Position numbers and translations under genes: made by a program. Positions 9,226 through 52,305 of a DNA stretch of 64,000 bases are shown piece by piece (positions within the stretch are counted from its first letter, which is position 1; each line of letters begins with the position of its first letter). Below the pieces are notes generated by a model, which saw nothing but the letters and a program-made list of their open reading frames with translations, had not been told where the DNA came from and did not search any database. The stretch comes from Deinococcales bacterium (GTDB taxonomy: Bacteria; Deinococcota; Deinococci; Deinococcales; JAAFIG01). Location of the stretch: the NCBI GenBank assembly GCA_043778225.1, contig JAYWGM010000101.1, positions 64,001-128,000 on the forward strand, read 5' to 3'.

Positions 9226-9294
9226 GTGGAGTGATACATAGACACGACCTGTGGAGTAATACATAGACACGACCTGTGGAGTAATACATAGACA
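9226..9294. repeat. Tandem repeat, 25-bp period, about 2.8 copies
   Basis: gtggagt(g/a)atacatagacacgacct at 9226, 9251, 9276. Confidence 0.95.
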
Positions 9295-9322
9295 AAATTC
9301 AATTTCTGTGAAAAGGTAACGG

Positions 9323-10909
9323 ATGCAAAGTAGATTTATTTGGGTGGTTGCGGTATTGCTTTTGGCAATGACAGCACTGGCAGCAAAAACAGGCGATACA
9401 AAATGGTCGCTGGTTAGTGCGGCTTCAAATTCGCCAACCGTCGGCTCGGACGGCACAATTTACTTTGGTGGCAACGACCAAAACTTTTATGCGGTTTCGG
9501 CAAATGGTCTGGTCAAATGGAAATTTTTGGTCGGTGGAATTGTTAAATCAAGCGCTGCAATTGGCAACGATGGCACAATTTACTTTGGTTCGTACAACAA
9601 GTCTTTTTATGCCCTAAACCCAAACGGGACACTGAAATGGACTTTTGCTTCGGGCGGCGATATTTACTCGAGTCCAGCTTTAGCCCAAGATGGCACAATT
9701 TACTTTGGTAACAGCAAAGGTTCTTTTTTTGCCTTAAATCCAAGTGGGCAGCCAAAATGGGAATTCAGAATCGGGCAGTCTATTTTTTCATCACCCGCAA
9801 TTGGTTCAGATGGCACAATTTATATTGGCGCACACGATAAAGCCCTGCACGCGCTTAACCCCGATGGCACAGAGCGCTGGAAATTTCCAACCGGCAGCTT
9901 TTTATTTTCCTCGCCCGCGATTGGCAGCGATGGCACGATTTACATTGGCTCGAGCGATTCTTTTTTATATGCGGTTTTGCCCGACGGTACAGAGCGCTGG
10001 AAGTACAAAACTGGTTTTTATGTCCTCTCGAGTCCAGTGATTGCTGCCGATGGCACAATTTATGTCGGTTCGCACGACAAAAAACTTCATGCGATTAACG
10101 CTGATGGCAGCCCAGCTTGGACTTTTCAAGCCGATGGTTATATTTCGTCTGTGCCAGCTTTGGCGGCTGATGGCACAATTTACTTTGGTTCTTTTGATAA
10201 CTATTTTTATGCCGTCGGCGCAACTGGGCAGTTACTTTGGAAGAAGAACTTGGGTAAACGAATAGATGCCTCGCCAGTGATTGCCAAAGATGGCACAGTC
10301 TATATTTCGGATTTGGCGGGTACTGTCTATGCGCTACAAGGCTCGGCGGGTTGGGCAATTGCACCTTGGGGACGTTTTAAGGGCAGTAACCTTGGGCTAG
10401 GACGGGCGTTAAGCCCTACCCAACTCGAGGCACTGTTGGCACTCGAGACCACACCGAGCCAGACCGCCACACCGGTCGTCATCGCCCCAGTGCCAGTCTC
10501 GAGACCCGCAACTCCACCAGTCTCGAGTAACCCTATAGTCCCAGTCTCGAGCCAAGTGAACACCAGTTCGTTGGCAGCCAAAGCAATTTTGGTGGATGGC
10601 ACAATTATGTTGCCAGTCCGCGAATTGGCGGCTTTGGTTGGCGCACAAGTGACCCGTTTTGAAGCTGGCACTGCCACGATTCAACGGCGCTCTGCCAGCA
10701 TCAGTTTAACCCTTGGCAAAGCTGGAACTGGCTATCGTGCGCCGATTTTATACACTGGCAAAATGTATGTCCCTTTACGAGCCTTAAATGGTTTAGCTGG
10801 GGTCAGCATTGCGTGGGATGCGACCGCAAAAAGTGTGCTGGTTTCGGTCGAAGGTCTGGTGACACAGATTAAATTAGATTTGGCAAAATTACCAAAAGTT
10901 AAACCATAA
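9323..10909 (+). CDS. Secreted PQQ-like beta-propeller protein with C-terminal copper-amine-oxidase-N-like domain
   Basis: About eight SSPAIG.DGTIYFGS repeats, Pro-rich linker, MLPVRELA / MYVPLRAL / WD..AKSV motifs. Confidence 0.85.
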   Translation: MQSRFIWVVAVLLLAMTALAAKTGDTKWSLVSAASNSPTVGSDGTIYFGGNDQNFYAVSANGLVKWKFLVGGIVKSSAAIGNDGTIYFGSYNKSFYALNPNGTLKWTFASGGDIYSSPALAQDGTIYFGNSKGSFFALNPSGQPKWEFRIGQSIFSSPAIGSDGTIYIGAHDKALHALNPDGTERWKFPTGSFLFSSPAIGSDGTIYIGSSDSFLYAVLPDGTERWKYKTGFYVLSSPVIAADGTIYVGSHDKKLHAINADGSPAWTFQADGYISSVPALAADGTIYFGSFDNYFYAVGATGQLLWKKNLGKRIDASPVIAKDGTVYISDLAGTVYALQGSAGWAIAPWGRFKGSNLGLGRALSPTQLEALLALETTPSQTATPVVIAPVPVSRPATPPVSSNPIVPVSSQVNTSSLAAKAILVDGTIMLPVRELAALVGAQVTRFEAGTATIQRRSASISLTLGKAGTGYRAPILYTGKMYVPLRALNGLAGVSIAWDATAKSVLVSVEGLVTQIKLDLAKLPKVKP

Positions 10910-10935
10910 ACCTCGAGTCCAAATCATTGATTTTT

Positions 10936-10962
10936 GTAGGGGTGATGCTTGTCATCACCCTG
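10936..10962 (+). repeat. GTAG-type REP-like hairpin, copy 2
   Basis: GTAG-gggtgatg-cttgt-catcaccc-tg; same loop as copy 1 with compensatory stem changes. Confidence 0.6.
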
Positions 10963-11175
10963 CTTTCAGCGACAGAAATTATTTATGCAAAAGGTCTAAT
11001 CTCGAGTCATTCAGCTAAAATTCAGCTTTGGTTTAAGTTAAGTTGCACCCACCAAGTTTAGAGTGGTTCTCGAGGATATTCAGGGCTTTGGCGCTGGCTT
11101 GACTTCGGGAGCGTTTTTTAACTCGAGTTAGGATTTTTTTCTTGGCTCGAGTCAAAAAACGGGTAAAGGTGCAAC

Positions 11176-11787
11176 ATGAAAACTTCAGAACAACGTATTT
11201 CGACCACTTTATTAAAAAGCCGCTATATTGTTTTGTTAGCGGTTGGCACGTTGTATTTGCTGTCCATGACTTTATTCGGTTATGCGACCATTAAAACGGC
11301 GGTGATGTTGCCGGGTTTGCTGGCAAAATTTACCTCGAGCAGTTCTAAATCTTTAATGCTTTTTGCGGTCGAAACCGCTGATTTATTTTTGGTGGCGGTG
11401 GTTTTATTTGTGACTGCCGCAGGGTTGTATGCGCTTTTTATGGGTAGACAAGCCAAAGCCGGCGATGCGGCGGTCACCCGTTGGCTCGAGGTCGAAACAC
11501 TGGACGACTTAAAACAAAACTTGATTGGCGTGGTTGTGGTGGCAATGGCGGTGCTGTTTTTAGGGGTTTTTATCCGCGATGACCCAGACCATAATTTACT
11601 CGAGATTGGCGGTGGAGTTGGGGCGGTGATTGCGGCTTTGGGTTGGTATGTCTCACAAAAATCCAGAGCCAAGGAATCGGATGCCAAGGTCAGCGAAATT
11701 AAAGTCAGCGAGACCAAAGTTAGCCAAGAAGAAAGCCAAGCGGCGGCAGAAACACTGGTTAAATTCAGCGAATCGCTGAAACCATAA
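11176..11787 (+). CDS. YqhA/UPF0114-family membrane protein
   Basis: D.FLV, GLY.LF, WLEVETLDDLK motifs; four TMs. Confidence 0.85.
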   Translation: MKTSEQRISTTLLKSRYIVLLAVGTLYLLSMTLFGYATIKTAVMLPGLLAKFTSSSSKSLMLFAVETADLFLVAVVLFVTAAGLYALFMGRQAKAGDAAVTRWLEVETLDDLKQNLIGVVVVAMAVLFLGVFIRDDPDHNLLEIGGGVGAVIAALGWYVSQKSRAKESDAKVSEIKVSETKVSQEESQAAAETLVKFSESLKP

Positions 11788-11853
11788 AAATGTAAAGACT
11801 TGCTTATATTTCAAAGAAGTGTAGAGTACGACTATGAACTTTATCGGAAATTT

Positions 11854-12216: not shown

Positions 12217-12227
12217 GAAGGAGTACC

Positions 12228-15200
12228 GTGATAAAGCCCAAACCAAAAGAATTACCTGTCGTGGTTGGCATCGGCGCTTCGGCTGGCGGTCTCGAGGCAT
12301 TCTCGAAACTCTTAAAGGCGCTTAAACCAGACACGGGCATGGCTTTTGTTTTGCTGCAACACCTCGAGCGCAGTCACGATAGCTTGCTGAGCGAATTATT
12401 GGCACGCACCACCAGCATGAAGGTTATCGAAATTATAGATGGCATCAGCCTTTTCGCCAATTGTGTTTATGTCATTCCACCCAATGTTAGCGTGGTCATG
12501 AAGCGCGGTGTTTTACGGCTTTTGCCGCGTCCTGCGGGGCGAGAATTACACCAGCCCATCAATGAATTTTTTAGTTCGCTGTCTCAGGCACGGCTGCATC
12601 AGGCAATTGGTGTGGTCTTGTCCGGCACAGCTTCGGATGGCACAGTTGGCTTAGAAGCGATTAAAGCCGCCGGCGGAATCACTTTTGCCCAGCGTCCAGA
12701 GTCGGCACGTTCGCCAGCCATGCCGCGCAGTGCCATCAAAGCTGGTGTGGTGGATTTTGTGCTGTCGCCCGAAGAGATTGCCGCCAAGTTGGTCAGTTTA
12801 GCCCAAGACCCATACTTAGGAAAAGCCAACAAGCGTCAGGCTCGAGCCAAACCAAGTGCGGCAGCCAGCAGCGATGATGGCTTTGAAGCGATTTTACATT
12901 TACTCCAAGATGCCAAAGACGTGGATTTTTCTTTGTACCGCTCAACCACAATTGGGCGGCGAATAAGGCGGCGGATGCTGCTCGATTCGATGACTTCAAC
13001 CACACGCTATATCGAACATCTACGCAGTCAGCCAGCCGCGCTCGAGTTGCTGTATCAAGATTTGCTGATTGGTGTGACCAGTTTTTTTCGTGATGCCCAT
13101 GTTTTTGAATGCCTACAAAAAACAGTTTTCCCCGAACTGCTTAAAGACCGTGCCGCCGATGATGTGCTGCGAATCTGGGTCAGTGGTTGCTCGACCGGAC
13201 AAGAAGCCTATTCTTTGGGGATGGCGTACTTGGAATGTATGGCACTTGCCAAAGTCAATATCCCACTGCAAATTTTTGCCACCGACTTAAACGCCCCAAT
13301 GCTCGAGAAAGCCCGTGCGGGTTGGTACTCGGCTGCCAGCATGGAGAATGTTTCGCCCGAGCGCCGCAAACGTTTTTTTAGCGAAGAAAAAGATGGTTGG
13401 CGCATCAGCGAAGCGGTGCGTGAAAAAATAATCTTTTCAAAACAAAATGTTTTTGCCGACCCGCCTTTTTCGCGTATGGACTTGGTTACTTGCCGAAATT
13501 TACTGATTTACCTCGAGCCAGCCCTGCAAAGCCGTGTCATTCCAACCCTGCACTATGCCTTAAAACCGCAGGGTGTCTTGCTGCTTGGCGCTTCGGAAAC
13601 GGTTGGGCGCTTTGAGGATTTATTTGGCGTGCTTGACCAGTCTTGCCGGTTTTATAGTAAGCGCTTGGTCAGCAGCCGAATTCCAAAACTCGAGGGGCGA
13701 ATTGTCAAATCGGTGGTCAGTAAACAAGAACCCACCGCCTCGGTGGTCAGTGCCAGTACAGTACAAACAGGGCGCGAGGTAGACCATTTGCTGCTTTTGC
13801 GCTATGCCCCAAGCAGTGTCGTGGTCAACGATGCGCTCGAGGTGGTGCAGTTTCGTGGCTCGACCAGTCAATTTTTAGAAGCCCCGAGCGGTAAAGCCAC
13901 TTTTAATTTGCTCAAGATGGCACGTGAAGGCTTAATGTTGCCATTGCGGCGTTTGACCGACCAAGCCCGCCAAGAAAATCGGGTCGTGCGCCTCGAGCAT
14001 CTGCGCTATTCGTACAACGGTGCAGTGGTTGCGATCAATCTCGAGGTTCAGCCCTTAAAACAACCCGGTTGTCTGTTGGTGCTGTTCGAGGTCTTGCCAG
14101 AATTACCAGCCGCCCAGCCGACTGCCGAGCCACAAACCCAGACCCGCCAACTCGAGGACTTGAACCGCGAATTATTAGAGTCCCGCGAATATGTGCGCTT
14201 TATCCAGCGCCAAAACGAAGACGAAAACGAACAGTTCCAAGCTGCCAATGCCGAAATGCAATCCTCGGGCGAAGAATTACAAAGCCTCAACGAAGAACTC
14301 GAGACCGCCAAAGAAGAACTCGAGTCCACCAACGAAGAAATCCAAACCTTAAACCAAGAACTGACGGTGCGGAACGCCGAATTGTTGCGCTTAAATACGG
14401 TCTTGACCAATTTCCAAAGCAGTGCCGAATTGGCAATTGTGGCGGTCAGCTTGGACTTAGAAGTGCAACGTTTTACCCCACAAGCCGAACGTACTTTGGG
14501 TTTACGCAACACTGACCTTGGGCAGCCGATTGGTCGGCTGAGCCATTTATTAAATTTACCCGATTTAGAAGAACTTGTTTTGACGGTTATTACTCAAGAA
14601 AAACCAACCGACTGCGAAGTTCGTGACCGCGATGGGCGCTGGTTTTTATTGCGGATTCGTCCCTATTACACCCCCGAAAATGATATTGACGGCGCGGTGC
14701 TGGTCTTGTTCGAGATGGATGCCCTAAAAAGAGCCGAACTCGAGCGAGAACGGCTACAACAACAAACCGAAGTTGTTTTTGAAAGCCTTGCCGATGGCTT
14801 ACTTGCCCTCAGTCACGATTGGATGATTACCTATATCAATGCCAACGGCGCACGTTTGGCGAATCGGTCAAAAGAGACCATGCTGGGTCGTAATTATTGG
14901 TCAATTTTTCCAGAAGTGATTGACACCGTTTTTGAGACTGGCTACAGAAAAGCCATGACTGAACGGGTGACGGTAGACCTCGAGGCGTATTATCCTGCGC
15001 TGGCTGCCCAATTTGAGGTTCGGGCTGTGCCAGTCGAGACTGGAATCACGGTTTTTTTTCGCGATGTCACCACACGGCACGAAACCGAAATCTTGGTTGC
15101 CGAAACCAAAGAAAAACTGCGCGTGCTTGCCGAAAGCCAACAGCGTTTTTTAGCCGATGCCGCCCACGAGTTACGCGCTCCGTTGGCGGTCATTCAGGGC

Positions 15201-15806
15201 AACCTTGAGGTGCTTGAACGCTTCCCCGAGATGCCAGCCCCAGACCGTTTAGAAGCCATCAGCGACAGCGCCCGCGAAGCCACACGCCTCGCCCAACTGG
15301 CAAATGATTTACTGGCACTGGCTCGAGGTGACGCTGGCGACGGTCTGCGGCTTGAGCCACTTGAATTAGCGGCACTGGTTTCAGAAACCCTCCTAGGTGC
15401 AACTTATCTGGATATTCAAAACCAACTCGAGTTGGGTACAATCGAGTCGGCTTTGGTTTTAGGCGATGCCAATAAACTTAAACAACTGGTGCTGATTCTG
15501 CTCGATAACGCCATGAAATACTCGCCAGAAGGTGGAAAAGTCAGCCTGAGTTTGCAGCACCAAACCAGCCATGCCGAATTAAGAGTCTCGGACAGTGGTC
15601 AGGGTATTGACGAAGCAGACCTCGAGCGGGTTTTTGAACGTTTTTACCGCACCGATACCTCGCGTTCACGCCAGACCGGCGGCACGGGATTAGGTTTACC
15701 GATTGCCCGTTGGATTAGCGAGCAGCACCACGCTAAACTCTGGCTCGAGAGTCAGGTTGGCGTTGGCACAACTGCCGTGTTGCGTTTACCGCTCATGCCA
15801 GAATAA
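12228..15806 (+). CDS. CheB-CheR-coiled coil-PAS histidine kinase fusion
   Basis: GASAGG (CheB), VTSFFRD/GCSTGQEAYS/CRNLLIY (CheR), EELESTNEE coiled coil, PAS, HELRAPL, GGTGLGL. Confidence 0.93.
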   Translation: MIKPKPKELPVVVGIGASAGGLEAFSKLLKALKPDTGMAFVLLQHLERSHDSLLSELLARTTSMKVIEIIDGISLFANCVYVIPPNVSVVMKRGVLRLLPRPAGRELHQPINEFFSSLSQARLHQAIGVVLSGTASDGTVGLEAIKAAGGITFAQRPESARSPAMPRSAIKAGVVDFVLSPEEIAAKLVSLAQDPYLGKANKRQARAKPSAAASSDDGFEAILHLLQDAKDVDFSLYRSTTIGRRIRRRMLLDSMTSTTRYIEHLRSQPAALELLYQDLLIGVTSFFRDAHVFECLQKTVFPELLKDRAADDVLRIWVSGCSTGQEAYSLGMAYLECMALAKVNIPLQIFATDLNAPMLEKARAGWYSAASMENVSPERRKRFFSEEKDGWRISEAVREKIIFSKQNVFADPPFSRMDLVTCRNLLIYLEPALQSRVIPTLHYALKPQGVLLLGASETVGRFEDLFGVLDQSCRFYSKRLVSSRIPKLEGRIVKSVVSKQEPTASVVSASTVQTGREVDHLLLLRYAPSSVVVNDALEVVQFRGSTSQFLEAPSGKATFNLLKMAREGLMLPLRRLTDQARQENRVVRLEHLRYSYNGAVVAINLEVQPLKQPGCLLVLFEVLPELPAAQPTAEPQTQTRQLEDLNRELLESREYVRFIQRQNEDENEQFQAANAEMQSSGEELQSLNEELETAKEELESTNEEIQTLNQELTVRNAELLRLNTVLTNFQSSAELAIVAVSLDLEVQRFTPQAERTLGLRNTDLGQPIGRLSHLLNLPDLEELVLTVITQEKPTDCEVRDRDGRWFLLRIRPYYTPENDIDGAVLVLFEMDALKRAELERERLQQQTEVVFESLADGLLALSHDWMITYINANGARLANRSKETMLGRNYWSIFPEVIDTVFETGYRKAMTERVTVDLEAYYPALAAQFEVRAVPVETGITVFFRDVTTRHETEILVAETKEKLRVLAESQQRFLADAAHELRAPLAVIQGNLEVLERFPEMPAPDRLEAISDSAREATRLAQLANDLLALARGDAGDGLRLEPLELAALVSETLLGATYLDIQNQLELGTIESALVLGDANKLKQLVLILLDNAMKYSPEGGKVSLSLQHQTSHAELRVSDSGQGIDEADLERVFERFYRTDTSRSRQTGGTGLGLPIARWISEQHHAKLWLESQVGVGTTAVLRLPLMPE

Positions 15807-18069: not shown

Positions 18070-18090
18070 GTTCTTGATAGACTGCTTTGT

Positions 18091-18861
18091 ATGGAATACA
18101 TCATCAAAGATTTACACAAGGCTTTTGAAATGGATGGACTCGAGGAAGTCCAACAAAGCGCTTGGGGTTACGACGACCGCGACCTGACACCGGGCGGTTT
18201 ATTTACAGTTCATGCCCACATGGGCGGAATTGTTTGCGCCGCCTTTGCGGTTGGTTCAGATATTCCAGTCGGTTTTGCCTACAGCTTTCCAGCGCTTTAC
18301 AAAAATAAAATGGTACAGCATTCGCATATGCTGGCGCTGCGCCCAGAACACCGTGCCAGTGGTTTGGCGGTGCGCCTCAAACAGCACCAACGAACTCGAG
18401 CCATAGCATTGGGCTACGACCTGATGACTTGGACTTTTGACCCAGCCTTAACCAAAAATGCACGGCTGAACTTGGGTAAACTTGGCGCTCGAGCCGTTTC
18501 CTACCACGAGGACTGGTATGCGATTAAAGGCGGAATTTATGCTGGGCTACCCGCTGACCGTTTTTTTGCCGAATGGGATTTAACCACAACCTTTGCGGAG
18601 CGCTCTAAGACTGCTCCGAGTGGCGAAATTGCGCTTGAAGCCAACGGTACTGGAGCAGGAAAACCAAGGCTTGATTTGACAGGCGTGGTTTTAATAGAAA
18701 GCCCACGGGACATTGACGCGCTTAAAGCCTCCAATCTCGAGGCGGCTCAAACGTGGCGCACCGCCCATCGTCTGGTTTTTCCGCATTATTTTGAGCGTGG
18801 TTATCTGGTCACGGATTTACACGACACTGGGACACAGACTTTTTATCGGCTCGAGCCGTAG
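18091..18861 (+). CDS. GNAT-superfamily acetyltransferase
   Basis: HSHMLAL, WTFDP..KNARLNL.KLGA, DRF..EW pattern. Confidence 0.8.
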   Translation: MEYIIKDLHKAFEMDGLEEVQQSAWGYDDRDLTPGGLFTVHAHMGGIVCAAFAVGSDIPVGFAYSFPALYKNKMVQHSHMLALRPEHRASGLAVRLKQHQRTRAIALGYDLMTWTFDPALTKNARLNLGKLGARAVSYHEDWYAIKGGIYAGLPADRFFAEWDLTTTFAERSKTAPSGEIALEANGTGAGKPRLDLTGVVLIESPRDIDALKASNLEAAQTWRTAHRLVFPHYFERGYLVTDLHDTGTQTFYRLEP

Positions 18862-18864
18862 TTT

Positions 18865-18931
18865 GCGCTGGCTGAGTTTGGCTGCCTCTAGCGCTGGCTG
18901 AGTTTGGCTGCCCTCTAGCGCTGGCTGAGTT
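18865..18931. repeat. Tandem repeat, 26/27-bp period, copying the stop of the 18915 gene
   Basis: gcgctggctgagtttggctgcc(c)tcta at 18865 and 18891, partial copy at 18918. Confidence 0.9.
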
Positions 18932-20360
18932 CGATAATCCAATCAACACTTGGGTTAGCTCGAGCCGCTAAAACATCCAAATGGGTCATGCTGGGTAAAT
19001 TTCGGACATCTATGCTTTGCTGCATTTTTTTCTCGAGTGGCTGATAAGCATTTGATTCGGTCACAATACCGCGCCCACCACGAATTGCCATGACTGGGAT
19101 TTTGGTGCTGCCAATGTGTTGGACTCGCAAGAATTGCCGCGCCCAAGTTGGTGACTCGAGACCAACCGCGCCTATATCTAAACTGAGTCGGGCTGGGAAA
19201 TACCATTCCTGAAAATCGCTTTGCGGGTTGTAAAAACGTGTTGCAAAATCGATCGGGTCGGTCAATTCGGTTGGGTCGGTCTGGCTAGGGATTTCCCACT
19301 CGACCCGTTTTGCACCGTCTGCCACGCCCGTCACCTCGAGTGCAAAACCGCCAACAAACCACGATAAGACATTGATACCGACTTTGGCTTGGCTGGCACG
19401 TCCGGCAGTAATCGCAAAGGCACTGATTAAGGCATATTGGTCATCACCAGAAATCATGGCAGCGGCAAGGTTGCTGGCAGGATACGGCACAACCCCGCCG
19501 GGGCTATCGCCGTTGGGGTCAAAACGCGCCAAAAGCGCGGCTGCACCAAGTTTAGCCAGCCCAGACGGGTCAAAACCAAAGGCACTAAAATACGGCACAT
19601 CTGTACCCGCCTCGAGACCAAGCTGACCCGCGCCACGAATCCCAAAAGGTCCAACCACCCCAGCTTGGTAATCGGCTTGACTTGTGCCGTTTTCGGAGGT
19701 GGTACGCCCAGCCACACCATCGAGCAGCAGGAGCGAATCAATATCTTTGTAGCCGGGTGTGCCGTTAAAATCCCATCCTGCGTACAATGAAACCATGACT
19801 GCGCCAAGGCTATGACCTCCCAGCACGACTTTCTGCCCGTAGGTTCGCGCCAACTGCACCACCCGTCGTAAATCCTCGAGATGCACCTGTAACCCCCAAA
19901 AGCCCATAAATTTTAAGTCTTTCGGGTCTCGAGCCTGAAAACCATTGGGCGCAAAATGGTACTGCCATGCCAGCCTTGGGTTGCGCTTGGTTAGGGCTTC
20001 TTGCAAACGGCTGTGGTCTTCGAGTTGATTGCTGCGGCGGTCGATTGCCCAGACCTCGAGACTTGGGTCTTTGGCGACCATGCTTCGCGCCAAACGGTCA
20101 AAATTGGCTGCACCACCCAAAAAGCCGGGCATCAGTACCACCACGGCTCGAGCTTTGCTGGTTTTGGGCAAGCTATAGCGCACAAAAAAAGCCTTGTCAA
20201 ATTCGTTTGGGGTGTTGGGTTCGTCAAAGCCAGTTATGGTCATGCGCTGGGCTTCTATTACCTCGAGACTTTTTGGCTCTGGGATTTGGGCAGATAGTGG
20301 TTGTATGGCTGGCGCACAGGCTGCCAAAGCCAACAAAGTCAGGAGCAAAAAGCGTTTCAT
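18915..20360 (-). CDS. Alpha/beta-hydrolase lipoprotein
   Basis: LAAC lipobox, GHSLG nucleophile elbow, C-terminal HLD. Confidence 0.8.
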   Translation of the reverse strand: MKRFLLLTLLALAACAPAIQPLSAQIPEPKSLEVIEAQRMTITGFDEPNTPNEFDKAFFVRYSLPKTSKARAVVVLMPGFLGGAANFDRLARSMVAKDPSLEVWAIDRRSNQLEDHSRLQEALTKRNPRLAWQYHFAPNGFQARDPKDLKFMGFWGLQVHLEDLRRVVQLARTYGQKVVLGGHSLGAVMVSLYAGWDFNGTPGYKDIDSLLLLDGVAGRTTSENGTSQADYQAGVVGPFGIRGAGQLGLEAGTDVPYFSAFGFDPSGLAKLGAAALLARFDPNGDSPGGVVPYPASNLAAAMISGDDQYALISAFAITAGRASQAKVGINVLSWFVGGFALEVTGVADGAKRVEWEIPSQTDPTELTDPIDFATRFYNPQSDFQEWYFPARLSLDIGAVGLESPTWARQFLRVQHIGSTKIPVMAIRGGRGIVTESNAYQPLEKKMQQSIDVRNLPSMTHLDVLAARANPSVDWIIELSQR

Positions 20361-20531
20361 GGTCTCGAGTTTACGGGTTTTATCTGAATTCAAATTGAAG
20401 TTGGGTCACACTCAATCTTTGTTGCTCCTTAGCATCTTAGAATTCAAATACAATTAAGTATCATTGCGCCTTGTATCCAGAAAACGTAGAATCGCGGCTC
20501 GAGTTCAAATTTGAACTTTCCGGAGGTACTC

Positions 20532-36378: not shown

Positions 36379-37713
36379 ATGACTTTACATCGTTCACAAT
36401 TTCCAGACCATTTTCGTTTTGGAGCCGCCACCTCGAGTTACCAAATCGAAGGCGCAGCCAGCACCGACGGGCGCAGCCCAAGCATCTGGGATACATTTTC
36501 GCACACCAGCGGACGCACCAAAAATGGAGACACCGGCGATGTGGCTTGTGACCATTATCACCGTTATCTCGAGGATGCTAACGTGATGCAGCAAATGGGC
36601 TTAAACAGTTACCGATTTAGCACCAGTTGGTCGCGGGTTTTACCAAAAGGCAGAGGGCAAATTAACCAAGCGGGTATGGATTATTACTCGAGGTTGGTAG
36701 ATTCTTTACTCGAGCGTGGCATCGAGCCGTGGCTGACGCTCTACCACTGGGATTTACCACAGGTTCTCGAAGACCAAGGCGGTTGGGGGTCTCGAGACAC
36801 GGCTTTTGCTTTTGCCGAGTATGCCCAAACGATGGCAGACCATTTGGGCGACCGTGTAAAAAATTGGTTTACCCACAATGAGCCTTGGTGTACAGCCTTT
36901 CTTGGACATCAAATCGGGATGTTTGCACCCGGTAAAAAAGACCAAGCCTTGGCTTTACAAGTCGCGCACCACCTGATGTTATCGCATGGACTGGCAATTC
37001 CAGCTTTACGCTCGAGCCAAAGTAAAGTTGGGGCTGCCTTAAACCTCTGGACGGTTCACCCAGCCAGTTCAAGCCAAGCCGATGCAGTCGCCGCCCATCG
37101 TTACGATGGTTTCTCGAATCGCTGGTTTTTAGACCCCTTGTATGGGCGCGGCTACCCTGCCGATATGCTCGAGTGGTACGGCGATAAAGCCCCCAAAGTC
37201 GAAGCAGATGATATGGCGATAATTGCCACACCGACCGATTTTTTGGGGATTAATTACTATATTCGTATGGTCGTGGCTGCCGACCCAAACGACACCCAGC
37301 TTGGTCGAAAAATTATTTTGCCAACAAGCAGCGAGTACACCGATTTTGATTGGGAAGTCTACCCCGATGGTCTGCGTGAATGCCTCGAGCGGGTGCAAAA
37401 CGAGTACAACCCCAAAGCCATGTACATTACCGAAAATGGGGCGTGTTACGACGACGACATCAATGCCGATGGCATTATCCCAGATACCAAACGTCAGCGT
37501 TATCTCGAGCAGCACCTCGAAGCCACCCGCCAAGCTCGAGCCAATGGTGCAAAACTCGAAGGTTATTTTGCTTGGAGTCTGCTCGATAATTTTGAATGGG
37601 CAGAAGGCTACAGCCGCAGATTTGGTTTGGTACACGTTGATTTTACCACCCAAAAACGCACCCTCAAGCAGTCCGCCCATTGGTACAAGCAGTTTTTACA
37701 AGGAAACGCATGA
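36379..37713 (+). CDS. GH1 beta-glucosidase
   Basis: ATSSYQIEG, TLYHWDLP, NEP, ITENG, WSLLDNFEW. Confidence 0.95.
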   Translation: MTLHRSQFPDHFRFGAATSSYQIEGAASTDGRSPSIWDTFSHTSGRTKNGDTGDVACDHYHRYLEDANVMQQMGLNSYRFSTSWSRVLPKGRGQINQAGMDYYSRLVDSLLERGIEPWLTLYHWDLPQVLEDQGGWGSRDTAFAFAEYAQTMADHLGDRVKNWFTHNEPWCTAFLGHQIGMFAPGKKDQALALQVAHHLMLSHGLAIPALRSSQSKVGAALNLWTVHPASSSQADAVAAHRYDGFSNRWFLDPLYGRGYPADMLEWYGDKAPKVEADDMAIIATPTDFLGINYYIRMVVAADPNDTQLGRKIILPTSSEYTDFDWEVYPDGLRECLERVQNEYNPKAMYITENGACYDDDINADGIIPDTKRQRYLEQHLEATRQARANGAKLEGYFAWSLLDNFEWAEGYSRRFGLVHVDFTTQKRTLKQSAHWYKQFLQGNA

Positions 37714-37764
37714 ACCTTTGGTGCAAGGAGACGCATGAACCTTTGGTGCAAGGAGACGCATGAA
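37699..37764 (+). repeat. Tandem repeat, 25-bp period, containing RBS plus ATGA
   Basis: caagga(a/g)acgcATGAacctttggtg; ATG at 37710, 37735, 37760. Confidence 0.95.
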
Positions 37765-38554
37765 TCTTTCGTTTATCACGGCTAATTTTGTGGCTCGAGA
37801 ACTCGAGTACAACATGACCCAAGGCTGGATGCAAGGCGACAGCGCCACCCAAGAGTTTTTTAAGCCGATTAAAACCTTTGAGGGGCGTTTTATCGCCATG
37901 CTTGAAGAAATTACAGCCATGGGGTTTAGCAATCTCGACCTTTGGGGAGCGCACCTCCACCCAGATTGGGCAACTGCCGAACACTTGCAATTGGCTCGAG
38001 ATGCCTTGCACAACCAGCAAATCAGCGTCAGTAGCCTCGCTGCTTGGTGCGGTGATTTGGATACTTTAGCGGGTTTTAGCCGAGTTGCCAATGGCATTGG
38101 TGCAAAAATAATTGCTGGCGGTATGCCCGTGCTGCACCAGACTCGAGCCGAAGCGCTGATGATTTTACAAGACGCTGGTGTCAAAATTGCGATCGAAAAC
38201 CACCCAGAAAAAAATGCACAAGAAATCCTTATGCAGATTGGCGCAGACAGCCACTTGGTTGGCGCAGCCCCAGATACAGGCTGGTGGGGAACACAAGGCA
38301 TGGACAGCCCAACTGCGCTGCGTGAGCTTGGGCGGCATATGCTGACTGTACATTTTAAGGATGTAAAAGAGGTGGGTTCACACCACACCTGTCGTTTTGG
38401 CGATGGCATTGTTGACCTAGAAAATAGCTTGGCAACACTTAAAGAGATTGGTTATAACGGCGTTATTGGCATCGAACACGAACCAGAAACACACAACCCA
38501 ACGGATGACATTTTGTACAGCAAAAACCGACTCGAGACTTGGAGCAATCTATGA
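37760..38554 (+). CDS. Sugar-phosphate isomerase/epimerase (xylose-isomerase-like TIM barrel)
   Basis: IENH, DTGW, HFKD, IEHE metal ligands. Confidence 0.85.
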   Translation: MNLSFITANFVARELEYNMTQGWMQGDSATQEFFKPIKTFEGRFIAMLEEITAMGFSNLDLWGAHLHPDWATAEHLQLARDALHNQQISVSSLAAWCGDLDTLAGFSRVANGIGAKIIAGGMPVLHQTRAEALMILQDAGVKIAIENHPEKNAQEILMQIGADSHLVGAAPDTGWWGTQGMDSPTALRELGRHMLTVHFKDVKEVGSHHTCRFGDGIVDLENSLATLKEIGYNGVIGIEHEPETHNPTDDILYSKNRLETWSNL

Positions 38555-41028: not shown

Positions 41029-41046
41029 AAGCCGATTGTATCAGGT

Positions 41047-41099
41047 CTCGAGTCAGAGCAGCATCAGATGCTCGAGTCAGAGCCACTAGGTTACTCGAG
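41047..41099. repeat. Degenerate CTCGAG-anchored repeat, 23-24-bp spacing
   Basis: ctcgagtcagagc at 41047 and 41071; third CTCGAG at 41094. Confidence 0.6.
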
Positions 41100-41161
41100 T
41101 TACGTCATTTAGCCAATGAATTTGTGCATAAAAACCGTTATCATAGTCGAGGTGAGAGATA

Positions 41162-43430: not shown

Positions 43431-44885
43431 ATTCTGTACTGCTGTTTTTAGATTTTCTTGTGCCATCTCGAGGTTCTGCACTTTTTGGCTATGCCAGTTT
43501 TTTGTTTGCTCGAGTCTCAGACCTGCTTTCTCCAGCGCCACCTGCACCACACTTGGCGCACTGCCCCCCAAGGTTGTGCGGCGCTCTACAAAGTTTTGTG
43601 GATTTAGCGCCCCCTGCACAAACTGGTCGGTTAGCTCGAGCCGAATTTCGGTCATGCTTTGGACAATCTCGGCTGTTAGTTGTGTCGGCTCTAAACTGTG
43701 CTGAACTGCATTATCTATGGTTCTCGAGACAATGGTATGGGCTGTTTTGAAGGTCAGACCCACCCCAACCAAGGCATCAGCTAAACCTGTGGCAGTAATA
43801 AAATGTTTTCCTGCGGCATGGCGCATTTTTGCGGTCTCAAAACTTGAAATCTCGAGAACAGCAGTTAGTAATCCAGTGGCAGCGCGGCTATCTTCAAGGG
43901 CTGATAGCACCACTGGCAAGAGCGGCTCAGCAACATCGTTGACATCGCCAAAGGGAATATGGTGGCACATCGTAAAAGCCGTTTGGGCTGCACCGTTGGC
44001 TCGAGCCAACTTAGCGCGGATGTGTTCCAAGACCACAGGATTGCGTTTTTGCGGCATGATGCTGCTGATTTGGACAAATGAATCTGCCACCCGAAAAAAA
44101 CCAGTTTCTTGAGTCGCCCAAAAAATCAGGTCATGTACCAGCCTCGAGAGGTTGGTGTTGCAAATCTGTAAAGCGCTCAGTAACTCAAGGCTGTGGTCGG
44201 AAGCCCCAACTGCATCTATGCCATTCTCGAGTAAGGACTCAAAACCCAGCCAATCAGCCACACTTTGACGGTTGATGGCAAAACCAGTCCCAGTCATGGC
44301 AACTGCCCCAAGCGGCGAAAGATTGATGCTCGAATAAGCGGCTTTAAGGCGTTGTAAATCGCGCTCAAGAACCCCAAGAATCCCAGATAAATAATGTCCA
44401 AGGGTGGTCGGTTGGGCTGGCTGATGATGGGTGTAGCCGGGCATCAGCCAAGTCAGACCTGCTAAGGCTCGAGTTTGTAGTACCACTCCTATTTGGGTGA
44501 CAACTTCGATTGCTTCGAGGGTTTCGCGGCGCAGTATCATCCGAATCAGGGCAGCATCGGTGTCGTTGCGACTGCGGGCAATATGCAGATTACCGGCTGC
44601 ATCTGTGCCAGCCAGTGCCAGAAGACGTGCCTCGAGTGCAAAAAATAAATCCTCGAAATTTTGAGAATAAGTAAAGGTTTCGCTCGCCACTGTCTCGAGG
44701 GCAGCACAAATTTTTTTGGCATGGTCTAGCTCGAGTAAACCAGACTGCCAAAGCATTAGGGCATGGGCGCGGCTGACCTCGAGTAGGGGCGCTAAAAAAT
44801 GTTGCTCAGCTTGGCGAAAATGTGGCTCGAGCAGATATTTTACATATTGCGGATTCCAGTCTTTTTTTGGCTTGGCTTGGCTCAT
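43413..44885 (-). CDS. argH: Argininosuccinate lyase
   Basis: [26 protein letters not shown]. Confidence 0.9.
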
Positions 44886-46427: not shown

Positions 46428-46436
46428 AGATTACTT

Positions 46437-46451
46437 TACGCCATTGGCGTA
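46437..46451. promoter_or_regulatory. Candidate TA autoregulatory operator
   Basis: TACGCCA-t-TGGCGTA palindrome about 10 bp upstream of the toxin start. Confidence 0.55.
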
Positions 46452-46498
46452 TATAAATCAAGTCTAGAATCTTTTTTTGAAATAGTACAATGAAGGCT

Positions 46499-48351: not shown

Positions 48352-48385
48352 GTTTAGGTGTACAGTATAACTCGAGGAGAAAATA

Positions 48386-49513
48386 ATGGCGCAAAGCGTG
48401 ACAATTGTGGACTTATTGCGGACGATGGTAGCGCGAGGCGTTTCTGATGTGCATTTGCAAGTTGGTTCACCACCAATGGGACGGGTTCATGGCACATTGA
48501 CGGCTTTTCACAGCGAAGCCCTAAAGCCCGACCAGACCAAAATGATTGGACGTACCCTTTTAACAACCGAACAATGGGAAGAATTTGAGTACCGTCATGA
48601 ACTCGACTTTGCCTATCTTGTGCCTAATGTGGCGCGTTTCCGTTGCAATATCTTTCGTCAGCGCGGCAGTATTGGCTTGGTCATGCGGGTTATCCCCGAT
48701 GCGATTGCCAGCTTTGAGAGTCTGGGGCTACCAGCCGATTTGATGGAAGAATTCTGCGGCAAAGAACGCGGTATTATTTTGACCACAGGTCCGACCGGTT
48801 CGGGCAAAAGTACCACCATGGCAGCCATTGTCGACAAAATTAACCGCACCTATGCTCATAACATCATCACCATCGAAGACCCAATCGAATACTTGCACCG
48901 CAATCAGCGCAGCCTTGTGGTGCAGCGTGAAGTTGGCTCAGATACCTCGGATTTTAAGAGCGCCCTGAAATATGCCATGCGTCAAGACCCCGATGTGATT
49001 ATGATTGGCGAGATGCGCGACAAAGAAACCGTTGAAGCCGCGATTACCGCCGCCCAGACGGGTCACTTGGTCTTGAGTACGCTGCACACCCAAGACGCGA
49101 TTCGCAGTGTCAACCGTATTATTGACTTTTTCCCGCCCCATGAGCGCGATCAAATCAGGATTTTGTTTGCCGAATCTTTGGTCGGTATTTTATCACAGCG
49201 CTTATTGCCTCGAGCCGATGGTTCTGGACGGGTGCTGGCATTGGAAGTGATGATTAACACGCCACTTATCCGCGACTACATCAAAGACGAAAACAAAACC
49301 CCAGAAATTAAAGATGCGATGCGCGAAGACAACAACCGTGGCATGACCACCTTCGATCAACATTTGGTACAGTTGTATTTCTCGGGCATGATTTCTTTTG
49401 AGGAAGGTTTGTCGGCTGCCACCAGTCCAGACGAGTACAAACTGATGATTACCCAAGGTTCAACCGCCCACAATTCATTCACTTCTCAAGGCAACGCTCA
49501 CGCCCCATCCTAG
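48386..49513 (+). CDS. pilT: PilT/PilU-family retraction ATPase
   Basis: GPTGSGKSTT, TIEDPIE, AMRQDPD, GEMRD, TGHLVLSTLH. Confidence 0.9.
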   Translation: MAQSVTIVDLLRTMVARGVSDVHLQVGSPPMGRVHGTLTAFHSEALKPDQTKMIGRTLLTTEQWEEFEYRHELDFAYLVPNVARFRCNIFRQRGSIGLVMRVIPDAIASFESLGLPADLMEEFCGKERGIILTTGPTGSGKSTTMAAIVDKINRTYAHNIITIEDPIEYLHRNQRSLVVQREVGSDTSDFKSALKYAMRQDPDVIMIGEMRDKETVEAAITAAQTGHLVLSTLHTQDAIRSVNRIIDFFPPHERDQIRILFAESLVGILSQRLLPRADGSGRVLALEVMINTPLIRDYIKDENKTPEIKDAMREDNNRGMTTFDQHLVQLYFSGMISFEEGLSAATSPDEYKLMITQGSTAHNSFTSQGNAHAPS

Positions 49514-49517
49514 GTGC

Positions 49518-49615
49518 AGTCAAAGTGGTTTTCGCACACGCCAAGTCAAGTGGTTTTCGCACACGCCAAGTCAAAGTGGTTTTCGCACACGCCAAGTCAA
49601 GTGGTTTTTGCACAC
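49518..49615. repeat. Tandem repeat, alternating 26/25-bp period, about 3.8 copies
   Basis: agtca(a)agtggttttcgcacacgcca at 49518, 49544, 49569, 49595. Confidence 0.95.
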
Positions 49616-49647
49616 ATTATTCTGAGTCCAGCGTGTAGACTGGTTGC

Positions 49648-50790
49648 GTGAGTGACTGGATTAGTACAATACGGCAATCTGTCGGTGGCAATACCCACGC
49701 CGAAATCAATTCTCCTGATGCTGGAATGCTTTTGACCGATAACGAATTGGTCTATATCAATGTCGGTGGGATGCAGCGTGCAAGGCTGGGTGAAATTGCT
49801 AAAGTGGCTCGAGAAAACGGCGAATTGGTGATTTCATCCACCGACCGCCCTTTGATTCGCGGCGCAATTAAAGCCGACAAAGAAACTCTGGCAAATTTCT
49901 TTTCGCAAGTGCGCCAAGTGGCAGCTTGGTCTCGAGAACGCCGCACCGTGATTATGGATTCGCCCAGTGCCACCCCGATGGACTCGAGTTTTGTTGGGCG
50001 CACCCCAGATGGTCTTGTCCGACCCGATTTACCAGACCCAATTGCCGAAATGCCAGTGCCTGTAGCCACTCGCCCAGTGGTGATGGTTGCACCAATCGAG
50101 TCTTTGCCGCCGTTGTTGTCACGTCCAGACCCAACCCAATCTCTGGGTCGTGGTGTCCCGCCAGTACCGCGAATCTCCGACGAAAACTTGATTGCCCAAG
50201 ACCGCCCTCGGGTGGTGGCATCGGTCGCGCCGCGTTTTTCGGAAACTCGGTCCGAGCCTGTGCGGCTCGAGTATGCTGGTTTCTGGGTGCGCTTTGGGGC
50301 ATACTTTATTGATTTAATCGTACTGGGTTTAGCCAGCGGGGTGCTTTCTTTTGTGTTCTCGAGCGGTGATGCTGCCAGTGGTTTAGGCTTGGCTTCGTTT
50401 GCCAACCTGATTTTTACTTGGTTGTACTTTGCTTTTCTCGAGTCTGGCGAACGCCAAGGTACACTGGGCAAAATGGCGTTGGGTCTAACAGTAACAGACA
50501 TGAATCAGCAGCGCATTTCGTTTCTTCATGCCACAGGTCGCTACTTGGCTCGAGCCATTCCAGCCGTGGTGATTGTTTTTGGGGCTTTTTTGACTTTGGG
50601 CGCGGCTGCCCTTGCTTCCGCCCTTTCGTTCAGCAATTCGGGTTCAGTTAGAGCAACACTTGCACCTTTGGTTGGTGGTGCTTTCTTGGCATTGTTGCTT
50701 TTACTTGTGACCTATTTAATGGCGGCGTTTACCGCCAAAAAACAAGCCTTGCACGATTTAATTGCCAGAACCCTGGTCTTAAAAAAATAA
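49648..50790 (+). CDS. RDD-family membrane protein with N-terminal soluble domain
   Basis: YAGFWVRFGAYFID, TLGKMALGL, QALHDLIA.T. Confidence 0.88.
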   Translation: MSDWISTIRQSVGGNTHAEINSPDAGMLLTDNELVYINVGGMQRARLGEIAKVARENGELVISSTDRPLIRGAIKADKETLANFFSQVRQVAAWSRERRTVIMDSPSATPMDSSFVGRTPDGLVRPDLPDPIAEMPVPVATRPVVMVAPIESLPPLLSRPDPTQSLGRGVPPVPRISDENLIAQDRPRVVASVAPRFSETRSEPVRLEYAGFWVRFGAYFIDLIVLGLASGVLSFVFSSGDAASGLGLASFANLIFTWLYFAFLESGERQGTLGKMALGLTVTDMNQQRISFLHATGRYLARAIPAVVIVFGAFLTLGAAALASALSFSNSGSVRATLAPLVGGAFLALLLLLVTYLMAAFTAKKQALHDLIARTLVLKK

Positions 50791-50791
50791 C

Positions 50792-51565
50792 TCAATAGGT
50801 AAAATGCTTAATTTGCTCACCACGAGCGCCAATCTCGGTCATGGCTTCAATCCCAATATCCAAATGCACATCTACCCATTTCTTGGTGACTTCTCTGTCC
50901 GAAGCATCGGTCTTGACTCCATCTGGAGTAATCGGCACATCCGAAACCAGCAACAGCGCCCCTCGAGCAATTTCGTTGTGATGCCCGACAATAAAAATCG
51001 TGGCGGTTTCCATATCGATGCCAATACAGGTTAAGCGTTTGAGCCGCTCGAGAAAATCCAAATCGTGTTCCCAAACCCGCCGATTGGTGGTGTAAATCAC
51101 GCCCGTGCGGTACTCGAGGTTTCGCTCCACAATTTTATCCGAGACAAATTTATGGAGCTTAAAACTTGGTAAAGCGGGGACTTCAGGCGGAAAATAATCG
51201 TTAGAAGTGCCTTCACCACGAATGGCAGCGATTGGCAAAATAAAATTCCCCAGTTCGGTACTGCTTTTTAAGCCGCCGCATTTGCCTAAAAACAATACGC
51301 CTTTGGGCATCCGCGCCGATAGTAAATCCATGACCGTCGCCGCATTGGCACTGCCGATGCCGAAATTGACCATCGTCAAACCAGCGCTGTTGGTACAGGC
51401 TTGCATCGCTTTACCTTCACCGTAAACATCCGCTCCAAAGCGATTAGCAAAACGCGCAACATAGTCGTCAAAATTAGTCAGCAAAATATAATCACCGAAC
51501 ATATCCACGGGCATTCCGGTATAACGCGGCAACCAGTTTTGGGTAATCTCGAGTTTTGATTTCAT
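50792..51565 (-). CDS. amn: AMP nucleosidase
   Basis: NWLPRYTG, GIGSANAAT, LGKCGG, IDMETAT. Confidence 0.9.
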   Translation of the reverse strand: MKSKLEITQNWLPRYTGMPVDMFGDYILLTNFDDYVARFANRFGADVYGEGKAMQACTNSAGLTMVNFGIGSANAATVMDLLSARMPKGVLFLGKCGGLKSSTELGNFILPIAAIRGEGTSNDYFPPEVPALPSFKLHKFVSDKIVERNLEYRTGVIYTTNRRVWEHDLDFLERLKRLTCIGIDMETATIFIVGHHNEIARGALLLVSDVPITPDGVKTDASDREVTKKWVDVHLDIGIEAMTEIGARGEQIKHFTY

Positions 51566-51570
51566 ACACG

Positions 51571-51664
51571 CATCATACTCGAGTCGCAGAGGCACGTCAT
51601 ACTCGAGACCTCAGAGGCACGTCATACTCGAGCAACCAGAGGCACGTCATACTCGAGCAACTAG
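51571..51664. repeat. Tandem repeat, 24-25-bp period, 4 copies, each with CTCGAG
   Basis: tcatactcgag at 51573, 51597, 51622, 51647; cagaggcacg core with a variable 3-4 nt linker. Confidence 0.93.
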
Positions 51665-51698
51665 AATCATTGACACTCGAGCGGTTAGAATACACGCC

Positions 51699-52214
51699 AT
51701 GAACAAGAATGTAATTGGAATTATGGTCGGCGTGGTTGTTCTGGCATTAGGCGCTTTATATGTCTACGTCAGCTTTGGCTCTGGAACGCAAAACTCTGGC
51801 AGCCCCCCATCTATTGTAAGCCCAGAAGCACCTGCTAGTGCGATGTGTGCTGCCCAACCAGCCGCCAACACCAGCCTAAAAGACGCGGATGTAACCGAAC
51901 TCAAAAAAGAAGATGTCAAAGTCGGCACTGGCGCAGAAGCAGTCGCAGGAAAAACCGTGGTGGTGAATTACATCGGGCGATTGGTTGATGGTAAGCAGTT
52001 TGATGCTTCTTGCGACCGCAGCCCCTTTGATTTTCCGCTCGGGGCTGGCGGCGTGATTCAGGGCTGGGACCAAGGCGTGGCGGGAATGAAAGTTGGCGGG
52101 CAACGCCGTTTGATTATTCCCTCGAGCCTAGGCTACGGCGCAGCAGGGGCGGGTTCAGATATTCCACCCAATGCGGCTTTGATTTTTGATGTTGAACTGC
52201 TCGAGGTACGCTGA
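51699..52214 (+). CDS. FKBP-type peptidyl-prolyl isomerase
   Basis: Y.G.L.DG..FD, VIQGWDQG, IP..LGYG, IPPNA.LIFDVELL. Confidence 0.95.
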   Translation: MNKNVIGIMVGVVVLALGALYVYVSFGSGTQNSGSPPSIVSPEAPASAMCAAQPAANTSLKDADVTELKKEDVKVGTGAEAVAGKTVVVNYIGRLVDGKQFDASCDRSPFDFPLGAGGVIQGWDQGVAGMKVGGQRRLIIPSSLGYGAAGAGSDIPPNAALIFDVELLEVR

Positions 52215-52305
52215 ACTCATCCTGCTCGAGGTACGCTGAACTCATCCTGCTCGAGGTACGCTGAACTCATCCTGCTCGAGGTACGCTGAACTCATCCTGC
52301 TCGAG
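52197..52305 (+). repeat. Perfect tandem repeat, 25-bp period, 4.4 copies spanning the FKBP stop
   Basis: ctgctcgaggtacgcTGAactcatc at 52197, 52222, 52247, 52272, plus ctgctcgag at 52297. Confidence 0.97.

Follow-up and report, generated by a model that had tools for sequence, protein, structure and literature searches.

Head-to-tail tandem repeats in which virtually all units are unique are known from the Borg elements of Methanoperedens; in the part of the published account used here, these repeats are recently formed, absent from close relatives and flanked by partial repeats, contigs end at them, and the mechanism is described as unresolved (Schoelmerich et al. 2023, PMC9879509). Borg units within open reading frames (ORFs) are divisible by three, most intergenic units are not, and repeats beginning in the ends of ORFs occur (same part of PMC9879509). 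Units of 18, 20, 21 and 36 nt are quoted there and no narrow length mode is stated; division of the figures in Table 1 of that paper gives mean units of about 21–27 nt (PMC9879509). Here we describe tandem arrays with a period of about 25 bp in a bacterial chromosome. They were noticed in a stretch of 64,000 nucleotides (the window; contig JAYWGM010000101.1, positions 64,001 to 128,000 of the forward strand, assembly GCA_043778225.1), which is part of the 4.03-Mb, 107-contig draft genome of an uncultured Deinococcales, labelled G000 below.

Short direct tandem duplications of arbitrary local sequence also arise during replication from unprocessed Okazaki flaps, as in yeast rad27/FEN1 mutants and E. 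coli polA 5'-nuclease mutants. Such flap-derived duplications vary widely in length and have short direct repeats at their borders. Staggered strand transfer is another source of duplications, made by transposases, by casposase (about 14–15 bp) and by Cas1-Cas2, which duplicates the repeat of clustered regularly interspaced short palindromic repeats (CRISPR). For spontaneous duplications the usual expectation is a broad length spectrum that decays. At the level of titles and abstracts, a literature search returned no description of a narrow 23–27 bp or 13–16 bp duplication mode in bacteria.

The initial annotation of the window had reported six arrays of ~25 bp at gene boundaries, and Tandem Repeats Finder (TRF) returned all six:

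9226–9294, no strand assigned: 25 bp × 2.8, 97% matches; ends 29 nt before the ATG (9323) of a beta-propeller/PQQ-like gene (Pfam).
18865–18931, no strand assigned: 26/27 bp × 2.5, 97%; between convergent genes, beginning 4 nt past the stop of 18091–18861 (+) and spanning the last codons and TAG stop of 18915–20393 (−).
37699–37769, + strand: 25 bp × 2.8, 95%; copies the junction formed by the stop of the GH1 gene (36379–37713), the ribosome-binding site (RBS) AAGGAG and the ATG of the next gene (37760).
49518–49615, no strand assigned: alternating 26/25 bp × 3.8, 94%; 5 nt past the stop of the PilT-like ATPase gene (48386–49513), upstream of the RDD gene (49648).
51573–51665, no strand assigned: units of 24/25/25 bp × 3.8, 90% matches; in the divergent region between 50792–51595 (−) and the FKBP gene at 51699 (+), at most marginally in an ORF start.
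52197–52305, + strand: perfect, 25 bp × 4.4, 100%; the unit comprises the 6 final codons of the FKBP gene (51699–52214), its TGA and a further 7 nt, and the array ends in CTGCTCGAG.

The six units are mutually unrelated in sequence. As had been remarked from the sequence, arrays copy the local stop or RBS and start: the stop, RBS and ATG at 37699, the end and stop of the FKBP gene at 52197, and a stop at 18865.

From these arrays the initial annotation had proposed a lineage process that duplicates unrelated local DNA with a fixed ruler, and it had called for a genome-wide peak at 24–27 bp. Such a peak is present, at 23–27 bp, both by TRF and by a count independent of TRF. At a TRF score ≥50 the whole genome yielded 451 collapsed arrays, of which the numbers by period were 4 at 17 bp, 11 at 18, 1 at 19, 4 at 20, 32 at 21, 6 at 22, 35 at 23, 59 at 24, 36 at 25, 24 at 26, 35 at 27, 6 at 28, 4 at 29 and 7 at 30. 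When the score was lowered to ≥30 and ≥3 copies were demanded, periods 13–20 held 0–4 arrays each, periods 23–27 held 9, 19, 13, 7 and 7, and period 28 held 1. The lower edge of the mode is therefore not an effect of the score threshold. In non-coding DNA and at gene boundaries, as given by a crude gene map of the longest ORFs (3,672 ORFs covering 91% of the genome) and after a family of octamer repeats had been taken out, there were 1, 11, 2, 0, 1, 3, 1 and 4 arrays at periods 15–22, 29, 18, 30, 22, 14 and 6 at periods 23–28, two each at 29 and 30, and 0–1 at 31–37. Below 15 bp this non-coding spectrum decays with length.

The TRF-independent count, taken as perfect runs of about two or more copies at spacing d, gave 23, 37, 24, 18 and 17 duplications at d = 23–27 (119 in all in G000). 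Outside the mode it gave 0–2 at d = 17–20, 9 at 21, 4 at 22, 4 at 28, 1 at 29 and almost none beyond. As the mode is seen in perfect runs of about two copies, the ruler is visible already in the youngest events. The length mode is discrete, sequence-independent and strictly direct, and it is present in perfect two-copy events. The discrete mode bears out the proposal of a fixed ruler, and the reading towards which we lean, with some reserve, is that the arrays are footprints of a still-active, lineage-specific, sequence-independent process that inserts direct tandem copies of a measured length (23–27 bp, mode ~25).

We compared the position of the arrays with that of ORFs. Among the 233 arrays with a period of 21–28 bp (score ≥50), 78 were coding, 55 spanned a stop, 29 spanned a start, 46 were intergenic and 25 lay within ORF ends. 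Out-of-frame periods were rarely coding (4/35 at 23 bp, 3/36 at 25 bp and 1/24 at 26 bp), and in-frame periods frequently were (28/60 at 24 bp and 15/34 at 27 bp). The claim made from the window, that frame-shifting events would persist only outside genes, is borne out by the genome at large, where such periods are found almost exclusively between genes or across stop and start codons. The related remark that the in-gene examples are 24 bp long carried over as a genome-wide principle; in the window itself it did not hold, as the units at 51573 measure 24, 25 and 25 bp, and the one array that lies clearly inside a gene has a period of 21 bp. The observed pattern is what would be expected of events that can strike any position and persist only if reading frames are left intact, with selection as the probable filter. 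Head-to-tail direct repeats at many loci with mostly locus-unique units of about 10–60 bp, together with ORF-internal units divisible by three and intergenic units that mostly are not, are also the features of repeats of the variable-number tandem repeat (VNTR) or Borg type.

The arrays of 18 and 21 bp are a class separate from the 23–27 bp mode: those of period 18 are 100% coding and those of period 21 are 81% coding, with median matches of ~85% (84.5% at period 21). The in-gene array of the window belongs to this older, coding, low-identity class, outside the mode. A further array, degenerate and of 23–24 bp, had been reported at 41047 and did not withstand the analysis, since TRF returned no row for it, even at a minimum score of 30, and its three 24-nt rows, by eye, share little more than CTCGAG. 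The two features are:

14288–14339, + strand: in-frame repeat, TRF 21 bp × 2.5, inside the CheB-CheR-histidine kinase gene (12228–15806; Pfam).
41030–41110, no strand assigned: putative degenerate 23–24 bp array, not confirmed; rows share mainly CTCGAG.

The sequences of the units contain little in common. The best 6-mer occurs in only 10 of 162 units, and the information content of the flanks is ≤0.07 bit. Units are balanced in composition (A 0.245, C 0.259, G 0.244, T 0.251; sense-strand A 0.27) and show no strand bias. The statement that the units are unrelated thus stood within the window and for most of the genome, and gave way for a few small families: with a 72% similarity cut, allowing rotation and either strand, 180 of the 233 units remained unclustered and 53 fell into 16 clusters, where the maximum for shuffled units was 71%. 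By eye, the convincing clusters are only a 23-bp family of ~10 arrays, a looser 'CCCATGC...CTGGTGCAG' group and units derived from the octamers; most clusters are borderline.

Junctions were read from isolated perfect duplications, in which both flanks are non-periodic, as the overlap r, the length of the periodic run minus one period. For the 38 such events with periods of 23–27 bp, r was ≤2 in 20, 3–8 in 8 and 9–16 in 10. Direct repeats of 10–12 nt at a spacing of 23, 25 or 26 were at background level in the genome (10–15 per spacing, as elsewhere). A reservoir of short direct repeats at 23–27 bp spacing that could act as a slippage substrate was looked for and not found; with no excess of such repeats at that spacing, slippage has no visible substrate pool.

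We then looked for ancestral states in relatives of the same genus, which are 70–85% identical to G000. The array at the end of the FKBP gene forms a series, with no array in G006, one unit plus CTGCT in G001, two units in G003 and G005, 4.4 in G000 and at least five in G007, where one substitution is present in every copy. This series indicates that the array arose from local sequence, with later whole-unit expansion and homogenisation. At 37699, G003, G004 and G005 have a single-copy ATGA stop/start junction that is 47–50 nt (two units) shorter. The array at 49518 is absent from G002, G003 and G005, of which G002 retains one look-alike of the unit. Elsewhere in the genome, the units of C72:17564, C31, C89 and C63 are present once in relatives, and at C31 the 26-bp duplication makes a new stop and replaces the C-terminus. 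Alignment to relatives therefore usually gave the single-copy ancestor that the initial annotation had expected. Two arrays departed from this and are old and shared between species: the one at 51573 has four copies in the same place in G001 and none in G007, and C19:641 has two diverged copies in G003.

That the process duplicates local DNA was upheld by the many units that are single-copy in relatives, and was not upheld throughout. At C64:1092, 5/5 relatives lack exactly 52 nt (two units) and hold 17 of the 26 unit nt at an ATGA stop/start overlap; the remaining 9 nt were found in none of the five. At C57 and C44 (compared with G001) and at C18 and C36 (compared with G003) most of the unit is missing from the relative, to which intergenic divergence may contribute. 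The constant quantity is the length of the unit, not the length of locally copied DNA. The ancestral state was unreadable at 9226, where the intergenic DNA of G003 and G005 is not alignable, and at 18865, C20, C75 and C52:56839, because the two flanks of each are on separate contigs in the relatives. C72:16220 and C52:58691 (variable linker regions, the latter not aligned) and C95 (ambiguous) gave no reading.

In samples of other genomes of the family, TRF arrays with a period of 21–28 bp made up 10 of 18 in G003 (245 kb, same genus), 4 of 10 in G006 (173 kb, same genus) and 9 of 33 in G013 (400 kb, another genus of the family), which also has a group at 13–18 bp. The out-group samples G019, G028 and G021 contained no TRF arrays at 23, 25 or 26 bp. 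Perfect duplications with d = 23–27 were distributed as follows:

G000: 29.5 per Mb (119 events).
G003: 8.2 per Mb (2 events).
G006: 5.8 per Mb (1 event).
G013: 10.0 per Mb (4 events).
G019: 14.3 per Mb (2 events).
G009, G011, G028 and G021: 0 per Mb (0 events).
66 loci of other phyla (975 kb): 1.0 per Mb (1 event).

G000 has the 23–27 bp mode at its strongest; the samples from its genus have it too, and in the rest of the family it is weak.

A second lineage has a different measure. Within 21 kb, a control locus from the metagenome-assembled genome (MAG) of an uncultured Deinococcaceae showed 14 perfect duplications, all of unique units and with periods of 13–18. A 361-kb sample of this genome, G031 (loci L024 and L204–L222; about 2.4 Mb, GC 47%), gave 409 TRF arrays at a score ≥30, or about 1,100 per Mb. 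Period 15 accounted for 87 of them, 13 for 35, 14 for 27 and 16 for 17, with almost none above 18. The same kind of frame filter was apparent, as arrays of 13, 14, 16 and 17 bp were intergenic and those of 12, 15 and 18 bp largely coding. Junctions had |r| ≤2 in 33 of 42 isolated events, including r = 0 in 16. CTCGAG, which floods G000 (24,877 sites, about one per 162 bp), occurs at 0.006 per kb in G031. Because G031 has a sharp mode without the CTCGAG flood, the phenomenon is independent of CTCGAG, and the measure differs between lineages.

A process of the kind we favour would begin with the insertion of a tandem copy of a short stretch, of measured length, at essentially any sequence. This first step could be measured by a protein that makes opposite-strand breaks a fixed distance apart, followed by fill-in; alternatively, a fixed length might be re-copied at a stalled 3' end. 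It is probably not classical slippage, because about half of the isolated events are blunt and there is no reservoir of seed repeats. Arrays would next gain and lose whole units while their copies are homogenised, as shown for the FKBP-end array. Purifying selection would remove frame-shifting events inside genes, so that periods of 23, 25 and 26 bp survive between genes or with a stop or an RBS plus start in the unit, and those of 24 and 27 bp also within genes. On opposite strands of B-DNA, phosphates that face one side of the helix lie ~14 and ~24–25 bp apart. These spacings match the two modes (~15 and ~25 bp), a match that we take only as a lead.

More tentatively, and more probably wrong than right, some prokaryotic lineages might own a sequence-independent 'measured duplication' complex of proteins, which would place two cuts, or a step of re-copying, at a fixed distance, set to ~25 bp in this genus and to ~15 bp in G031, and so would continuously seed length-locked minisatellites chromosome-wide. 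If so, unit length would be a heritable, lineage-specific read-out of the measuring machine, and an activity of this sort could also have given rise to the repeats of Borgs.

A number of observations weigh against the reading of the arrays as products of a measuring process. Overlaps of 3–16 nt were found in 18 of the 38 isolated events, and at the FKBP end of G001 the CTGCT is a 5-nt direct repeat 25 nt apart, as slippage would need. The existence of 16 unit clusters with ≥72% similarity means that 'unrelated' is not absolute. Unit parts that are missing from relatives indicate that the event is not always a plain local copy, and arrays conserved between species (51573 and C19:641) would also suit a function. 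Fractional copy numbers are roughly uniform and edges are sharp, neither of which would be expected if single units were simply duplicated. No enzyme could be tied to the pattern among Pol I 5'-nuclease, MutL, Ku and ATP-dependent ligase. In 19 family genomes Ku was found in none and ATP-dependent ligase in one, as a weak match; with both absent, the joining step of a staggered-break model is left with no obvious enzyme. The staggered nicks and fill-in suggested in the initial annotation thus receive a mixed answer: the blunt junctions (20/38 in G000 and 33/42 in G031) fit them better than they fit microhomology slippage, and no nuclease or integrase was identified and no Ku. The relatives entered the comparison as small samples of 120–400 kb each. 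On the side of the reads, support consists of Logan contigs, which give neither copy numbers nor their heterogeneity.

The main rival is that slippage or microhomology makes duplications of all lengths and that recombination sets the 23–27 bp window afterwards. Units below the RecA minimum would collapse, longer ones would be too rare, and those of ~25 bp would be amplified and buffered by unequal exchange in a polyploid cell; Shen and Huang reportedly found in 1986 that the minimal length for RecA-mediated exchange in E. coli is about 23–27 bp. The FKBP-end series is what this rival would produce, from a single-copy state in G001 with its 5-nt direct repeat exactly 25 nt apart to 2, 4.4 and at least five copies elsewhere with homogenised substitutions. 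The 18 events with overlaps of 3–16 nt also suit it, and it predicts the decay with length of the non-coding spectrum below 15 bp. However, the edges at 22 and 28 are sharp already in perfect two-copy events, and a filter acting by amplification offers no reason for a cut above 28 bp. Overlaps of ≤2 nt in 20/38 events and the lack of excess 10–12-nt direct repeats at 23, 25 or 26 as seeds also speak against it, and G031 repeats the pattern at 13–16 bp, well below that RecA threshold. It fails on the sharp upper limit and on the 15-bp lineage, and we consider it unlikely.

The arrays could also be functional elements kept by selection, such as repeated binding sites, doubled stops, RBSs or starts that tune translational coupling, or small RNAs, in which case the length would be the footprint of a protein. 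The array at 51573 speaks for this. The ends of its units are conserved (TCATACTCGAG ... CAGAGGCACG) around a variable core of 4–5 nt, in G000 as well as in G001 (L174), where four copies are kept. Its sequence is suggestive of repeated binding sites in a divergent promoter region, more so than of a neutral duplication. The two copies of C19:641 in G003, the recurrence of 52197-like units at the 3' ends of other genes (C56:60822; G007, G009) and the position of the stop codon, which is 12–13 nt inside the unit in 11 of the 45 arrays that span a stop, point the same way. Yet most units are unique and share no motif, the same mode appears inside coding regions as in-frame repeats of 24 and 27 bp, and most arrays examined are absent from same-genus relatives. 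Gene orientations flanking the arrays match the genome background, with no preference for the promoter side or the terminator side. We regard function as an improbable explanation.

Target-site duplications or footprints left by a departed element or by an integrase with staggered cuts of 23–27 bp, or a mobile family of mini-repeats, would explain why blunt junctions and a fixed length resemble those of target sites, why some units hold DNA not present in relatives, and why there are a few small unit families. We searched for direct repeats of 22–29 bp flanking inserts of 60–15,000 bp and found no peak; those recovered are pieces of longer paralogous repeats. No source copy of the units is found elsewhere in the genome and terminal motifs are lacking, and we regard an origin from mobile elements as quite improbable. 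That an assembler made or mis-sized the duplications is hardly credible. The draft of G000 has 107 contigs, copy numbers are untrustworthy once an array exceeds the length of a read, and one 25-bp array breaks the assembly (end of C72 and start of C83), but an artefact would not respect reading frames, which out-of-frame periods do by avoiding coding DNA while in-frame periods do not. Species that were assembled independently have arrays in common with G000, at other copy numbers, the single contig of G013 contains perfect arrays of 26 and 27 bp, and G031 has further arrays. The only read-derived material was the Logan contigs for two samples, from two runs of a single study; those of both samples contain the arrays and break inside them at 37735, 49579 and 52276.

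Several other candidate drivers were tried and rejected. Slippage driven by hairpins was set aside as the units have no excess folding energy (p = 0.28), and import of units from elsewhere in the genome as their matches are no better than those of control 25-mers. Capture of blunt fragments should leave inverted copies, and there is no inverted counterpart, nor any inverted repeat with arms >20 nt. Decayed outer copies do not lie behind the fractional copy numbers, because identity past the array edges is at background. Loss of the flap nuclease or of mismatch repair was rejected since both are present in family genomes, with the 5'-nuclease domain of Pol I intact in 19/19 and MutL found in 18/19. 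Canonical end joining was rejected on the absence of Ku and ATP-dependent ligase. A process linked to CTCGAG, of the highly iterated palindrome (HIP) type, was also rejected. CTCGAG lies inside 47 of the 233 units, compared with 12% of random 25-mers, but its offset from array edges has no preferred value, adjacent sites show only a 3-nt (codon) periodicity in their spacing, and G031 has arrays with next to no CTCGAG.

In two otherwise perfect arrays, C52:56839-56898 and C43:17884-17946, the third copy departs from the first two by clustered changes through which CTCGAG arises. In one case two copies read ...CACTTGCAGATG and the third ...CACCTCGAGATG, with three changes in 6 nt and none elsewhere in 60 nt. 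Such changes may record the way in which the CTCGAG flood is written. Hexamers containing GGCC are nearly missing from G000 (4–25 copies each), and GGCC per kb is very low also in G003, G006 and G011 and not in G013 and G009, which suggests that part of the family has a restriction system specific for GGCC. The PilT-like protein of the window shares 90% identity with its counterpart in a 'Deinococcales bacterium' MAG and 63–69% with those of Deinococcus and Truepera. Rfam, searched at the gathering threshold, gave no match in the window.

The genome contains other repeats. The octamer family (units like TAACCTTT / AAAGGTTA and variants) forms many short intergenic arrays, for example at 52315–52339 of the window; genome-wide there are 130 period-8 arrays with ≥3 copies, several of them at contig ends. 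These arrays resemble the heptamer arrays of short tandemly repeated repetitive (STRR) sequences of cyanobacteria. Other, unrelated genes have at their 3' ends units like those of 52197 (CTGCTCGAGGT, 5–6 variable nt, then GAACTCAGC). In G000 there are 1.36 copies at C56:60822-60855, at the 3' end of an unrelated gene, and arrays of such units occur in G007:C452 (L171) and in G009, at the end of C88 and the start of C84 (L172, L173), where the array breaks the assembly. A dispersed repeat of 37–39 nt (AGCGACCCAGCCCGACAGGTGCATCTTTAGGGTCAAGA and variants) is present in 2–4 tandem copies at several loci and in relatives, and ~10 of the '23-bp arrays' owe their period to a 23-bp sub-period of this repeat. 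Its loci are:

C2:43779-43848, 37–39-nt repeat.
C15:19692-19760, 37–39-nt repeat.
C53:5459-5536, 37–39-nt repeat.
G006 sample, 44155–44305, 37–39-nt repeat.

An array with a 61-bp period at C80:16-169 has the look of a CRISPR repeat plus spacer. Coding repeats of 147 bp (49 residues) with ~73% identity form long arrays at C90:97-1773, C17:98-459 and C28:1800-3600, and these are presumably large repeat proteins.

The duplications copy stops, ribosome-binding sites and starts, remodel protein ends and add in-frame repeats of 8 and 9 residues. The arrays interrupt assemblies made from short reads and might be used as fast markers of strains. When duplications have a sharp length mode that is independent of sequence and varies between lineages, this points to a molecular ruler in replication or repair. 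Such a mode also offers a way to approach the tandem repeats of Borgs and of some archaea, as unit length can be mapped on a phylogeny and correlated with gene content.

Among the described systems, the organisation of a CRISPR array is not that of the arrays of G000, whose copies are directly adjacent with no spacers. Nor are they dispersed repeats like repetitive extragenic palindromes (REP), bacterial interspersed mosaic elements (BIME) or miniature inverted-repeat transposable elements (MITE), with the exception of ~10 arrays of one 23-bp family. Staggered strand transfer shares with the arrays a fixed length set by a protein, blunt direct duplication independent of sequence, and a length specific to the lineage. 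It differs in that its copies flank an element or spacer, whereas those in G000 are directly adjacent and no inserts are flanked by repeats of 22–29 bp. Duplications from unprocessed flaps differ from those in G000 in that the latter are sharply bounded in length and have many blunt junctions, in a family of which 19 of 19 genomes retain the 5'-nuclease domain of Pol I.

The Borg repeats, as far as the part of their description used here extends, are alike in their unique units, in genic units divisible by three, in repeats that start from ORF ends and in flanking partial repeats. They are, however, archaeal and extrachromosomal and virtually absent from the host chromosome, whereas the arrays described here are bacterial, chromosomal and confined to 23–27 bp. 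Borg units are described in the same part as strongly A-rich; this Borg-specific trait is not found in G000, whose units have no composition bias. Judged against these partial accounts, the pattern is best filed with the pervasive unique tandem repeats of the Borg type, from which it is set apart by a sharp, lineage-specific unit length in bacterial chromosomes.

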